Shown: positions 8,667-22,990, counted from the stretch's first letter. The stretch is DNA of 64,000 nt from Rhodospirillales bacterium (GCA_030745835.1 JASLNU010000108.1:10214-74213); one strand, 5' to 3'. Notes: generated by a model not told the origin, from the sequence alone. Numbers and translations: made by a program.

Positions 8667-10055
8667 ATGCCGGATCAAGCGGCATCGATTGCGGAAAGCG
8701 GCATCGTCGAAGCCTATAGCGAGCGGACCAAGGGATCGGCGCGGCTTTACGAGGATGCCCGGAGCCGGTTTCCCAGCGGTATCACCCATGACATCCGCCA
8801 TCAGCATCCCCATCCCTTGTATCTGGAGCGGGCCGAGGGCGCCCATAAATGGGACGTCGATGGCAATCGCTATGTCGATTACTTCATCGGCCACGGGGCG
8901 CTGATCCTGGGCCACGGCCACCCCGAGGTGGTCAAGGCGGCCCAAGCGCAGATGCGCGCCGGCAGCCATCTCGGCGGCAGCCATCGATTGGAAGTGACCT
9001 GGGCCGGGCTGATCCAGTCGCTGATGCCGAGCGCCGAGCGGGTGCGCTTCACGGCCTCGGGCACGGAGGCGACATTGCTGGCCTTGCGCCTTGCCCGGGC
9101 GCATACGGGACGCACCAAGTTTGTCCGCTTCAAGGGCCATTTCCACGGCTGGCACGATCATATGGTCGCCGGCTATAGCGCCCATTTCGACGGCACCCCG
9201 GCGCCCGGGGTGCTGCCTGAAGTGGCGGCGGCCTCGATTACGGTAGCGCCCGGCGACCGGGAAGCGACGCGCAGCGCCCTTGCCGCCGAGCCGGACATCG
9301 CCGCCGTGATTATCGAGCCGACCGGCGCCCATTTCGGCCGCACGCCGCTTGATCCTGAATTTCTAGCGTTCCTGCGCCAGGAAACGGCGGCGCGCGATGT
9401 CGTCTTGATATTCGACGAGGTGGTCACCGGCTTCCGTGTCGCGCCGGGCGGCGCGCAAGGCCTGTTCGGCGTGCTTCCCGACCTGACCGCCCTCGGCAAG
9501 ATCGCCGCCGGCGGCCTGCCCGGCGGGGCACTGGTGGGCGCCAAGGAGATCATGGATCAGCTTGATTTCACGGCAAGTGCCGAAACCGAAACCGAGAAAA
9601 TAGGCCATCAAGGCACCTTCAACGCCAATCCCGTGAGTGCCGCCGCCGGCATTGCCGCGCTTCGCATCATCTCGGAATCCGATGCCTGCGGGCGCGCCAA
9701 CGCTTTCGCCGCCGATTTGCGCCAGCGGTTGAACGGCGTCTTGGCTGAATTGTCGATCCCGTGGGCGGTCTATGGCGAATATTCGGGCTTTTATCTTTTC
9801 ACCAACGTGGACAAGCGACCGTTGATAGCCAACCATTTCGATCCCCATACCGTCGATCCCGACGAATTGGTGCGGGCGGACGCCGAGCTGATGTCCAAGC
9901 TGCGCCTCGCGATGCTGCTGAACGGTGTTGATCTGACGCCGCGCTTCAGCGGCTGGACATCGGCGGTGCATGGCGCTGATGAGGCCGCCGCCACCATCGA
10001 TGGGTTCCGCAATGCACTGCAAAAACTTAAGAGCGAATTCGGCGAGTCATTTTGA
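8667..10055 (+). CDS. Class III PLP aminotransferase (glutamate-1-semialdehyde aminomutase-like)
   Basis: WDVDGNRYVD, SGTEA, FHGWHD, IFDEVVTGFR, LGKIAAGG (PLP Lys) and HQGTFNANP. Confidence 0.88.
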   Translation: MPDQAASIAESGIVEAYSERTKGSARLYEDARSRFPSGITHDIRHQHPHPLYLERAEGAHKWDVDGNRYVDYFIGHGALILGHGHPEVVKAAQAQMRAGSHLGGSHRLEVTWAGLIQSLMPSAERVRFTASGTEATLLALRLARAHTGRTKFVRFKGHFHGWHDHMVAGYSAHFDGTPAPGVLPEVAAASITVAPGDREATRSALAAEPDIAAVIIEPTGAHFGRTPLDPEFLAFLRQETAARDVVLIFDEVVTGFRVAPGGAQGLFGVLPDLTALGKIAAGGLPGGALVGAKEIMDQLDFTASAETETEKIGHQGTFNANPVSAAAGIAALRIISESDACGRANAFAADLRQRLNGVLAELSIPWAVYGEYSGFYLFTNVDKRPLIANHFDPHTVDPDELVRADAELMSKLRLAMLLNGVDLTPRFSGWTSAVHGADEAAATIDGFRNALQKLKSEFGESF

Positions 10056-18569: not shown

Positions 18570-19447
18570 CTAAATATCATGTTTTTTTAGTGTTGCTAAA
18601 AGGCAACGGTCGTGACCGGCAAGGTCTTTTAGCGGTTTTTGAACCTTAAGTCCCTCAAATTTAAGGATTTCGGCAACCTGGTGGGCCTGCCTGGCTCCGA
18701 TTTCCAGGATCGCGAGCCCGCCCGGCGCCAATAGGCCGGGCAGGCGCCCGGCGATCTGGCGATAGGCGTTAAGGCCGTCGGTCCCGCCAAGCAGTGCCCG
18801 GGGCGGCTCAAATTCGCGAACCGTCGGCGCCAGATCCGGCCATTCATCAGCCGAAATATAGGGCGGATTGGAGACGACAATGTGAAATTCGCCTGGCTTG
18901 GTGCCGCTGTTCAGGCAATCCGCCCAATTTCCGCAAAGGATGCGCGCCCGATCCGAAAAACCCAGCCGCTCGGCGTTGGCGCGGGCGACGGTGGCGGCGC
19001 CGGCATCGATATCGACGCCGACGCCGGTGGCATCTTTGAACTCGCTGAGCAGCGCCAGAAGCAGGCAACCGGTGCCGGTGCCGAGATCGAGTATGCGGGG
19101 CCGGTCCGGCAATCGCGCGCGATTGGCGAGGGCCGCTTCGACCAGGCATTCGCTGTCGGGTCTGGGAATCAGCGTTTGCCGCGTGACCAGGAAATCAAGG
19201 CTCCAAAATTCGCGCGTTCCGATGAGATAGGCCAAGGGCTCGCCCCGCGTTCTGCGCGCCGCCAGCTTGGCAACGGCGGCGGAGGCGGCGGTTTCGATGG
19301 CGCGCTCCGGCGCGCCCAGCGCCGCCATGCGCCCAAAACCGGTCACATGTTCCACCAATAGGCCGGTCTCCAGGCGCGCCGCTTCGATCCCGGCGGCGGC
19401 CAGGGTTTCGGTCGTCTTGCCCATGAGGGTGCCTAGATTCACGGGGC

Positions 19448-19451
<4 letters not shown>
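18570..19451 (-). CDS. prmC: Release factor glutamine methyltransferase
   Basis: [16 protein letters not shown] and VSNPPY; overlaps the prfA stop. Confidence 0.95.
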
Positions 19452-20533
<1,082 letters not shown>

Positions 20534-20556
20534 ATCGGACTATCCAAGTAAAAGTG

Positions 20557-21738
20557 TTAGCGGTTTCGTTTGCCGCGAAAAAACCGGTCGATCAAAAGCC
20601 GTGTTGCCTTGTCAGCGTCACCCTCGGCTTCCTCAAGCACTTTGCGGCGCATTAATTCCAGATTATCGGATTCGGCGCGCGGCGCTTCCGGATTTCCCGG
20701 TTCGTCGGCATATTTGGAGGCTGCCTGGGACACCAGATCGCGCGCGCTTTGCGCATCGGCCTCGCGTGACGACCGGCCCTCGCGGGTGACACGTTCAAGA
20801 TCATCAAGGGTATAAAGAAAGGCATCCTCGATGGATTCCACGGATTTGTCGATATCGCCCGGAACGCCGGTATCGATCAGGAATTGGGGACGCCGCCGGC
20901 GCGCGCGCAACGCCGCCGCAACCATTGCCTTGCCCAGCACGAAGCGCCGCGTATTGACCGAAGTGATTACGATATCGGCTTCTTCCAGCCTTTGCGGCAG
21001 GCTGTCGAAGGCGACCGCGTGGCAGTTCAATTGCTGGGCCATAGCTTCGGCCCGGGTTTCCAGTGAATGGGTGACGTTAAGATCGCCAAGGCCGGTGGAC
21101 AAAAAGCTGGACCCCAGAAGTTCGCCCATTTCACCGGCGCCGATAAGCAAGCCCCGGCAGCGCGCCAGATCGCCATGTATGTCGCGCGCCACCTCGACGG
21201 CGGCGGCCGAGATGGAAACCGGGCGCTGCCCGATGCCGGTCTTTTTGTAGACCTGTTCGCTGACTTGGATGGCGGCGTCCATCAATGGGCCGAGCACGGG
21301 TCCGGCCACGTTTTCCCGCGTCGCCGTAGCGTAGGCGGTGCCTACCTGATCCAGGAAACGCGCATCGCCGATCACCAGGCATTCCAAACCGGAGGCGACG
21401 GCGAAGGCGTGCTTTACCGCTTCGCCGCCCGACAGGAGATAGCTTTGGTTCTCGATATCGGAACGGCTGACGCCGGCGTTGGCGGCCAATAGTTTTCGAA
21501 TTTCGTCGCCGGTTTCGAGGGGCTCGTCGGCGATCGTATAAATCTCGGTTCGGTCAATGCTCGACAGGACCAGAACCTCGTCCAGGCCGGCGCGCCTGAG
21601 GCGGCCATAAAAGGCCGGCAGTTCGCTGGCATCGAGAAACAGCCGGTCGCGCAATATCATCGTCGATGAGCGATGGTCGGCGCCCACCACCATCAAATGC
21701 TGGATAGGACTGTTCCCTTGTTTTTCGGCGTCGGTCAC
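20557..21738 (-). CDS. hemA: Glutamyl-tRNA reductase homologue with a degenerate active site
   Basis: GADHRS, VSISAAAV, IGAGEMG, FLIDTGVPGD and the hemA-prfA-prmC order support the family. STCNR reads SSIDR and GEPQI reads GDARF. Confidence 0.8.
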   Translation of the reverse strand: MTDAEKQGNSPIQHLMVVGADHRSSTMILRDRLFLDASELPAFYGRLRRAGLDEVLVLSSIDRTEIYTIADEPLETGDEIRKLLAANAGVSRSDIENQSYLLSGGEAVKHAFAVASGLECLVIGDARFLDQVGTAYATATRENVAGPVLGPLMDAAIQVSEQVYKKTGIGQRPVSISAAAVEVARDIHGDLARCRGLLIGAGEMGELLGSSFLSTGLGDLNVTHSLETRAEAMAQQLNCHAVAFDSLPQRLEEADIVITSVNTRRFVLGKAMVAAALRARRRRPQFLIDTGVPGDIDKSVESIEDAFLYTLDDLERVTREGRSSREADAQSARDLVSQAASKYADEPGNPEAPRAESDNLELMRRKVLEEAEGDADKATRLLIDRFFRGKRNR

Positions 21739-21742
21739 GCGT

Positions 21743-22990
21743 TTATTCTCCCGCTCCGGTCAGATGTTCGGCAACCTGATCCAAGGATACCTCGGATTGG
21801 GCTCCGGAATCCATATCTCGTAGCGTCGCCGCGCCGCGCGCCAGTTCATCGTCGCCTAGCAATACCGCCCAGCGGGCATTGACCTTATCGGCGCGCTTCA
21901 TGCGTTTGCTCATATTACCCGAATATCCAAGATCCACCGCGATGCCGGCGCGGCGCAGGTTTTGCGTCAAATCAAGGGCTGCCGCTTCGGCGTCCTTGCC
22001 GACCGGAACGACCGCAACGGGACGCTTCGCGGTGTCCGCCTCGCCGGTCAAAAGGGCCAGCCTCTCGACACCCGCCGCCCAGCCGGTACCCGGCGTTTGG
22101 CGCCCGCCCATCTGCTGAAATAGGCCGTCATAACGCCCGCCGGCGAGAACCGTTCCCTGCGCGCCCAACTCATCGGTCGTGAATTCGAAGGCGGTATGAC
22201 AATAATAGTCGAGCCCGCGCACCAGCCGGTTGTTGATTTCGTGGGCAACACCCAGCTTTTCCAGGCCTTCGCGGACGCTGTCGAAAAATGCGCGCGACGT
22301 ATCGTTGAGGCAATCGGTCAAGACCGGCGCGTTCTCGATCACGCCGCGGTCGCCATCATCCTTGGAATCGAGGATACGCAGCGGGTTGCGCTGCAGCCGC
22401 TCGCGGCTGTCGCCGGACAGTTCATCCTGGCGGCCTTGCAGATAATCGACCAGGAGGTCCCGATAGGCGGCGCGGCTTTCGCCGTCGCCGAGAGTGTTTA
22501 ATTCCAGGGTCACCTTGTCGCCGACGCCGAGCTGGCCCAGAAACTGATTGGCGAGGGCGATCACCTCGATATCGGCAAGTGGCTGGGCTACGCCGATCAG
22601 TTCGACACCGACTTGATTGAACTGGCGGCGGCGGCCCTTTTGCGGCCGCTCGTAGCGGAACATGGGTCCGCGGTAGAAATATTTAAGCGGCAGATCCTGC
22701 TGCAACCCGCCGGACATGACGGCGCGGGCAACGCCGGCAGTGCCCTCGGGCCGCAGCGTAATGCTATCGCCGCCGCGATCCTCGAAACTATACATTTCCT
22801 TGGTCACAATGTCGGACGTATCACCGAGGGTTCGCGAAAAGACCTCGGTGAATTCGAATATGGGCGTCGTGATCTCGCCATAGCCATAGAGTTCGGCGAC
22901 ATCGAAGGCGATGCGCTCGACGCGCCGCAATTGGCGGCTTTCGCTGGGAAGCACGTCCTGGGTGCCGCGAACGGGTTTAAGAGACGCCAT
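21743..22990 (-). CDS. hisS: Histidine--tRNA ligase
   Basis: LRPEGTA, FRYERPQKGR, RGLDYY and GGRYDGL. Confidence 0.97.
   Translation of the reverse strand: MASLKPVRGTQDVLPSESRQLRRVERIAFDVAELYGYGEITTPIFEFTEVFSRTLGDTSDIVTKEMYSFEDRGGDSITLRPEGTAGVARAVMSGGLQQDLPLKYFYRGPMFRYERPQKGRRRQFNQVGVELIGVAQPLADIEVIALANQFLGQLGVGDKVTLELNTLGDGESRAAYRDLLVDYLQGRQDELSGDSRERLQRNPLRILDSKDDGDRGVIENAPVLTDCLNDTSRAFFDSVREGLEKLGVAHEINNRLVRGLDYYCHTAFEFTTDELGAQGTVLAGGRYDGLFQQMGGRQTPGTGWAAGVERLALLTGEADTAKRPVAVVPVGKDAEAAALDLTQNLRRAGIAVDLGYSGNMSKRMKRADKVNARWAVLLGDDELARGAATLRDMDSGAQSEVSLDQVAEHLTGAGE

Follow-up and report, generated by a model that had tools for sequence, protein, structure and literature searches.

A glutamyl-tRNA reductase relative without its catalytic cysteine is kept by purifying selection in a family of Rhodospirillales

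Alphaproteobacteria have, in the account given by textbooks and reviews, swapped the C5 route to aminolevulinic acid (ALA) for ALA synthase (ALAS). According to a passage in PMC9356726, their common ancestor had "lost the C5 pathway". Why, then, does a stretch of 64,000 nucleotides from a Rhodospirillales bacterium (GCA_030745835.1, JASLNU010000108.1:10214-74213; the whole of this stretch is called the window below) carry between hisS and the prfA-prmC pair an undamaged gene for a homologue of glutamyl-tRNA reductase (GluTR), and why does this homologue lack the very cysteine of the STCNR motif that, as a passage in PMC7242693 states, forms the thioester in GluTR? An earlier note, made by reading the sequence alone, had raised the choice between a new role and decay after the switch to ALAS. 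We find that this Cys-less relative of GluTR is kept by purifying selection acting on all three of its domains.

The GluTR-like protein and its missing cysteine

The gene and the sites on which the argument turns are the following, the two codons having been placed by alignment to solved GluTRs:

20557..21738, minus strand: open reading frame (ORF) P0001 of GluTR fold, a Cys-less glutamyl-tRNA reductase orthologue of 393 aa with a GTG start and 0 internal stops
21556..21558, minus strand: ATT codon of Ile61, at the site of the thioester-forming Cys (SSIDR against STCNR)
21379..21381, minus strand: TGC codon of Cys120, at the site of a conserved pocket Ser (GLEC against GLDS)
21346..21369, minus strand: GDARFLDQ, residues 124-131, against GExQILGQ; D125 is the clade's fixed substitute for an invariant Glu
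21463..21504, minus strand: the stretch from E79 to R92, a clade-specific residue pair, in helices 73-88 and 92-97 of an AlphaFold2 model
21124..21141, minus strand: the dinucleotide-binding loop GAGEMG, residues 200-205, kept; G200, G202 and G205 are each present in at least 90% of both Cys-less and Cys-bearing sequences

An alternative start, the ATG at codon 16, lies just ahead of the first conserved strand. The ORF matches the Pfam domain GlutR_N (5.9e-29) and a Rossmann domain of the Shikimate_DH type (2.5e-29), and its score of 261.9 bits against TIGR01035 is above the cut-off of 209.55; all six NF-series glutamyl-tRNA reductase equivalogs stay under their own cut-offs, and the PF00745 dimerisation domain found no Pfam match in it. 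From an alignment of 138 rows, AlphaFold2 gave a model with a pLDDT of 92.1, which Foldseek paired best with 1gpj (E 5.8e-25, TM 0.68), followed by Arabidopsis GluTR entries. A homodimer prediction for two copies on the Cys-less alignment scored 0.01, which is evidence neither way.

With glutamyl-tRNA reductase proper (GtrR/HemA, EC 1.2.1.70; PDB 1GPJ, 4N7R/5YJL/5CHE), the protein thus has in common a TIGR01035 match, the domain order GlutR_N, Rossmann and spinal helix, a position next to prfA-prmC, the GxGxxG loop and the residues H110, R63 and Q131. It differs from it in the missing nucleophile and PF00745 domain, in the exchanges S120C, E125D and Q127R, in the replacement of K161, R164, R225, R294 and H388, and in a genome without a HemL partner above cut-off. 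For residues other than the Cys, we take their roles to be those in the M. kandleri and E. coli enzymes.

All three altered motifs of the earlier note and its codon coordinates hold up on reading the minus strand, where codon 61 stands in tcg-agc-att-gac-cga (SSIDR), and on alignment to the solved enzymes. Against Arabidopsis 4n7r, phmmer sets SSIDR opposite STCNR, GLEC opposite GLDS and GDARFLDQ opposite GEGQILAQ; against M. kandleri 1gpj it sets GLEC opposite GLES and GDARFLDQ opposite GEQEILRQ, with SSIDR outside the printed alignment. The Arg, His, final Gln and GAGEMG that the note had listed as kept align as R63, H110, Q131 and the same loop.

Sequencing error, which the note had allowed for, is not the cause of SSIDR and GLEC. 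The interval 20400-21900 was followed through public data, in which 18 runs from ca. 10 studies contain at least half of its sampled words. Contigs of the independent DNA run X11 span all of it with one difference (at 21352), and run X17, a variant strain, departs from it at 18 listed sites; the codons for Ile61 and Cys120 are unchanged in both. Together, the contigs of these two runs hold 19 natural variants, 12 synonymous and 7 non-synonymous. SSIDR and GLEC recur in a protein of another assembly that is 98% identical. Three metatranscriptome contigs of 151 nt from two libraries of two studies match pieces of the gene at 100% identity, and one of them covers codon 61; DNA may have been carried over into these RNA libraries, and the contigs are a hint of transcription only.

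Residue changes and selection in the Cys-less clade

Among the 41 genomes of the order that we searched (the window's own included), 39 gave a match and 38 loci were read; like all counts over related genomes given here, these are not independent. The window's family, f1, comprises 25 genomes of 13 genera and has the gene in 24 of them, the exception (G020) being only 66% complete. Wherever the N-terminus is visible the cysteine is gone (23/23), with I, T, V, S, H, G, K, P or D in its place; the 24th gene (G009), which runs into a contig end, has a canonical-like GEPQILGQ. Outside this family, the order sample contains 14 orthologues in which the Cys position can be read, and each of them has [SA]TCDR together with GEPQVLGQ. 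One of these, a canonical STCDR orthologue (L049:1504-2644, genome G035), is split by a frameshift, which could reflect either a pseudogene or a fault of assembly; its genome is 85% complete and no ALA synthase was found in it.

A search for related loci based on the Cys-less alignment is skewed by its two peptide patterns and is not a census. A first comparison set 38 Cys-bearing against 110 Cys-less sequences (148 different sequences in all, each 350 aa or longer; shorter ones as well as L039, L044 and L049 were left out). Another used three groups: A, 60 genuine STCNR enzymes; B, 109 alphaproteobacterial STCDR proteins; and C, 109 Cys-less proteins. The nucleophilic Cys is present in 60/60, 109/109 and 0/109 of these, respectively. 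Lost solely in group C are C61, S120, E125, Q131, K161, R164, H388 and ca. 35 C-terminal residues. The Cys-bearing relatives exceed the Cys-less ones at the C-terminus by a median of 35.5 residues, and the motif of H388 and P390 is gone from the latter; K161 and R164 are found in 97-100% of genuine GluTRs and Cys-bearing relatives.

Groups B and C already have a second set of changes in common: N62 to D, E31 to D, F188 to H, R225 to P (80% of the clade; S in the window's protein) and R294 to G (100% of the clade). The STCDR homologues in records titled Terasakiella, Paramagnetospirillum, Fodinicurvata, Virgifigura and Tagaea, for instance, resemble the window's clade in N62D, E31D, F188H, R225P, R294G and the pair C239-H240, and differ from it in keeping Cys, S120, E125, Q131, K161, R164, H388 and the full C-terminal domain and in having neither E79 nor R92. 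The Cys-bearing alphaproteobacterial orthologues read STCDR throughout, with Asp where other phyla show Asn. C239 is the sole Cys found throughout the Cys-less clade; since C239-H240 is conserved equally in groups B and C and thus also in Cys-bearing relatives, it is not a replacement nucleophile.

The earlier note had suggested examining whether SSIDR and GLEC are conserved among orthologues. The absence of the Cys is uniform, while the residues that replace it are not: position 61 holds T, I, S, H, V, G, N, K and more, and position 120 is S in 54, G in 31 and C in 20 of the 110 Cys-less sequences, C120 being present in every member of two sister genera, one of which is the window's. R63 is kept in 73/110, and at positions 126-131 the top residue reaches only 25-55%. 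Around these variable sites, S59, T60, D62, E65, H110, D119 and G124 are conserved in the clade, and E125, found in 38/38 Cys-bearing sequences, is D in 104/110 Cys-less ones. The ancestral residues H110, V292 and D312 are retained better in group C than in group B. The clade has also gained residues: N238, N262 and D305 are new and present in 110/110, while E79 (100/110) and R92 (102/110) occur together in 99/110 and each in 0/38 Cys-bearing sequences. The exceptions to this pair are mostly early-branching, longer forms, and the residue patterns suggest that the Cys was lost first, while E125D, the pairing of E79 with R92 and the shortening of the C-terminus came later. A protein of 429 aa (P0065), full-length and of STCDR type with GEPQILGQ, has Trp at the Cys site (STWDR) and may be a snapshot of the first step.

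The ratio of non-synonymous to synonymous substitution rates (dN/dS) was estimated with the method of Nei and Gojobori (NG86) in 16 within-genus pairs, some of which are saturated. For the GluTR-like gene it is 0.083-0.220 in 15/16 pairs (the pair L017/L033 gave no value), compared to 0.021-0.192 for prfA and 0.042-0.209 for hisS; the least saturated GluTR-like pairs give 0.17-0.22 at dS 0.17-0.54. Constraint extends over the N-terminal domain (0.09-0.27), the NAD(P) domain (0.03-0.22), which is the most constrained of the three, and the C-terminal part (0.11-0.25, with one small pair at 0.53). Relaxed selection or simple decay, one of the outcomes envisaged in the earlier note, is thereby rejected, with dN/dS at 0.08-0.22 and an open frame in 13 genera; the combination of coordinated active-site changes with purifying selection favours a retained or new role, as the note had argued.

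Descent, gene neighbourhood and ALA supply

In a 36-row tree of the order sample, the 13 rows with Cys (including L048, which reads ATCDR) form one clade with support 99, so that the loss of the Cys in this sample amounts to one change. A 77-row tree rooted with STCNR sequences from other phyla places two alphaproteobacterial STCNR proteins as sister to an STCD clade (support 100), inside which fall the 17 rows of the Cys-less clade with the window's protein (support 90, and 99 for a core of 14 rows). This tree requires at least two Cys changes, its long-branch joins being unsafe; because the Cys-less G072 and the Cys-bearing G224 belong to the same family, the Cys has been lost more than once. 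Among 141 other top representatives at 50% identity with at least 330 aa, 19 are Cys-less and one more is cut at the N-terminus. An STCDR orthologue beside hisS, prfA and prmC, as in alphaproteobacterial loci, was also found in a record titled as a Verrucomicrobiia metagenome-assembled genome (MAG; L103), where the contig is probably mis-binned or the segment transferred.

The window's gene lies in the hemA-prfA-prmC position that the earlier note had described, confirmed by the ORF call and by the profile scores of its neighbours:

21743..22990, minus strand: hisS, histidine-tRNA ligase, directly upstream of the GluTR-like ORF (TIGR00442, 471.6 bits, cut-off 286.75)
21749..21753, minus strand: GGGAG, read from the sequence as Shine-Dalgarno-like and putatively functional as such, ca. 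10 nt 5' of the GTG, within the 3' end of hisS
19448..20533, minus strand: prfA, release factor 1, 23 nt downstream of the GluTR-like stop (TIGR00019, 506.5 bits, cut-off 423.25)
18570..19451, minus strand: prmC, release factor N5-glutamine methyltransferase (TIGR03534, 257.9 bits, cut-off 199.1)

The hisS stop codon (TAA, 21745-21743) is separated from the GluTR-like GTG by 4 nt, and prmC overlaps the end of prfA by 4 nt. A scan for promoters and terminators was uninformative, with 6 promoter-like sites against 2.8 expected and no terminator-like site between the four genes; in line with the latter, hisS, the GluTR-like gene, prfA and prmC are putatively co-transcribed. An Rfam scan of the window gave 0 matches. 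The arrangement is conserved in related genomes, with hisS upstream in 30/30 and 6/8 loci and prfA downstream in 29/30 and 8/8 loci of two locus sets. The misses are mostly contig ends; L046 has no hisS in its 1.5-kb flank.

Does the gene still serve ALA supply? The earlier note had called for a search of the genome for ALA synthase and hemL. The window's genome (93.4% complete) has a single GluTR homologue and one ALA synthase, at 646 bits above the cut-off of 338.55, and no HemL above the TIGR00713 cut-off of 527.3. The best TIGR00713 match in this genome lies in the window itself:

ca. 8736-10022, plus strand: HemL-like class-III aminotransferase (TIGR00713, 305.9 bits; NF000818, 314.4 bits against a cut-off of 398)

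Such HemL-like aminotransferases (260-390 bits) are patchy among carriers of Cys-less and Cys-bearing forms alike; in the window's genus, for example, two of the three further genomes have none. The GluTR-like protein hence has no consistent partner in them. Across the order sample, HemL exceeds its cut-off in 1/41 genomes and ALAS in 37/41.

We extended the survey to 201 genomes of Alphaproteobacteria, each 90% complete or better. Of these, 37 contain a GluTR homologue with E<=1e-20, which in 30 cases is above cut-off. The 36 carriers besides the window's genome fall into four types, listed with the numbers of genomes in which HemL and ALAS are above cut-off:

STCNR type, n = 2: HemL 2 (600-606 bits), ALAS 0
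Cys followed by D or E, n = 27: HemL 0, ALAS 24
Cys-less or degenerate, ORFs of 379-434 aa, n = 6: HemL 0, ALAS 6
No usable alignment, n = 1: HemL 0, ALAS 1

In 34/36 of these carriers, prfA adjoins the GluTR homologue. The GxGxxG loop, too, has been lost by some of the six Cys-less or degenerate forms. Five degenerate ORFs of 379-425 aa lie between hisS and prfA (L159, L160, L162, L163 and L165, in G096, G243, G072, G201 and G192); their Cys is gone, as is GxGxxG in most of them, and several stand in small genomes (1.5-2.5 Mb). They apparently arose independently of the window's clade.

The Cys-bearing STCDR orthologues in genomes positive for ALAS and negative for HemL are 'orphan' GluTRs, and their presence in such genomes, in sister families of the window's, was not foreseen in the earlier note. 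They occupy the same hisS-X-prfA-prmC slot. Genomes titled Paramagnetospirillum marisnigri, Terasakiella sp. PR1, Fodinicurvata halophila, Virgifigura deserti and Tagaea MAG in their records have ALAS in 5/5 and HemL in 0/5 cases above cut-off. STCDR orthologues were read at loci L029, L031, L032, L036-L041, L045-L048, L081, L090, L094, L107, L122 and L131-L158.

A proposed role in binding in place of catalysis, and the alternatives

What would a GluTR be kept for once its nucleophile is gone? Judged by its sequence, the protein is a pseudoenzyme, with the fold kept, the catalytic residue missing and purifying selection acting over many species. We give an even chance to a selected pseudo-GluTR that binds instead of performing thioester catalysis and serves in regulation or as a scaffold. 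On this view, a GluTR in the hisS-X-prfA-prmC slot would first have lost its nucleophilic Cys in the ancestor of the window's marine, Rhodospirillales-type family. Some of the glutamate pocket would have gone next, along with three residues, basic or His, that never vary in genuine enzymes, and with ca. 35 residues at the end of the dimerisation domain; purifying selection would have retained the protein from then on. Lacking the nucleophile, it should be incapable of GluTR thioester chemistry and would take no part in ALA supply, which ALA synthase covers. It probably still binds a dinucleotide, to which the intact Rossmann loop and the most constrained middle domain point, and it may have gained a new ligand or partner, as suggested by the new face with the invariant residues E79 and R92 and by the altered pocket with its acidic D62 and D125. 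Expression would come from the hisS-prfA-prmC cluster of translation genes.

Several observations weigh against this view of a selected pseudo-GluTR. Both R225, which would contact the 2'-phosphate of NADPH, and R294 are invariant in genuine GluTRs but replaced in the clade and in its Cys-bearing relatives, so that NADPH binding may be altered. The protein distance, divided by the mean of those of prfA and hisS, is 2.21 in Cys-less forms (210 pairs) and 1.64 in Cys-bearing ones (55 pairs), which is a modest acceleration and no release from selection. At 164/201, most alphaproteobacterial genomes have no match at E<=1e-20, and most of the class can thus dispense with the gene. The Cys-less form is carried solely by uncultured MAGs. 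Finally, the conserved rim of S59, T60, D62, E65, H110, D119, G124 and D125 could equally mean a small-molecule active site.

This last point leads to the main rival, a neofunctionalised, thiol-independent oxidoreductase dependent on NAD(P)H that would act on a new, non-tRNA substrate in the remodelled pocket of the N-terminal domain. We hold it to be somewhat unlikely. GxGxxG and the strong constraint on the NAD(P) domain would be expected of such an enzyme, as would the near-invariance of S59, D62, E65, H110, D119, G124 and D125, and the fixed exchanges E125 to D and N62 to D resemble retuning more than loss. The centre of the former glutamate pocket (61, 63, 120 and 126-131) has nonetheless remained variable in the clade, which argues against one shared new substrate, since such a substrate would normally have fixed these positions, and no new metabolic neighbour gene travels with the gene in the related loci that we read.

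A binder of tRNA(Glu) or Glu-tRNA, which would recognise charged tRNA without catalysis and sequester or sense it, is improbable in our view. Descent from a tRNA-dependent enzyme, the kept fold and a place between an aminoacyl-tRNA synthetase gene and those for translation termination would all suit it, but K161, R164, H388 and the last ca. 35 C-terminal residues, which to judge by their invariance and place presumably serve tRNA binding or dimerisation, are gone, and their loss speaks against tRNA binding having been kept. In addition, residues of the glutamate pocket vary, and the protein is acidic (pI ca. 5.1). The tRNA-binding role that the earlier note had offered is weakened by the loss of K161, R164 and H388.

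We consider it very unlikely that the protein has no function and that its frame is kept for reasons in cis, such as a promoter or translational coupling for prfA, or as an outgoing relic. The tight spacing (4 nt to hisS and 23 nt to prfA), the absence of the gene from most Alphaproteobacteria, the more degenerate copies in other lineages and the modest rate acceleration would all be compatible with this. But dN/dS is similar to that of the essential neighbours, with constraint in every domain, the frame is open in 23/23 family members over divergences saturated in dS, and new invariant residues were gained. Cis constraints do not select amino acids, and neither retention in cis only nor decay fits constraint at this level.

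Least credible of all is a GluTR still at work with Cys120 as relocated nucleophile, which the earlier note had entertained and which is conceivable only in the window's own subclade, where C120 replaces the pocket Ser in every member and R63, H110 and Q131 are kept in the window's protein: clade-wide the idea fails with C120 missing in 90/110 Cys-less relatives under the same constraint, K161, R164 and H388 are lost, and with ALAS present there is no HemL above cut-off to use the product.

In full-text searches of the literature (subscription papers lay outside them), none of the papers listed dealt in its title or the opening of its abstract with a Cys-less GluTR or with GluTR homologues in ALAS-using Alphaproteobacteria; the excerpts of PMC11480375, PMC9356726 and PMC7242693 contain no mention of either, and a term search of PMC13564367 gave no passage. 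The account of C5 loss stands against 37/201 alphaproteobacterial genomes that keep a GluTR homologue, nearly all of them with ALAS and without HemL. Since the Cys-less protein passes TIGR01035 and its relatives are named 'glutamyl-tRNA reductase', automated metabolic reconstructions will wrongly infer a C5 step in these abundant marine genomes.

Beyond the selected pseudo-GluTR of this one family, the whole hisS-X-prfA lineage of GluTRs, STCDR and Cys-less forms alike, might have a second function, one independent of both HemL and thioester chemistry; this is possible, though we tend to doubt it. A candidate would be a regulator that senses a dinucleotide or charged tRNA and is tied to the translation-factor cluster. 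For any such function, thioester chemistry would be dispensable because the Cys-less clade lacks the nucleophile. The Cys-less family is in this respect a natural experiment in which retention of the gene is independent of the chemistry of the enzyme, and it makes a second function of GluTR testable. If true, moonlighting by GluTR would account for the persistence of the gene once ALA synthase had taken over, and perhaps also for the old linkage of hemA and prfA.

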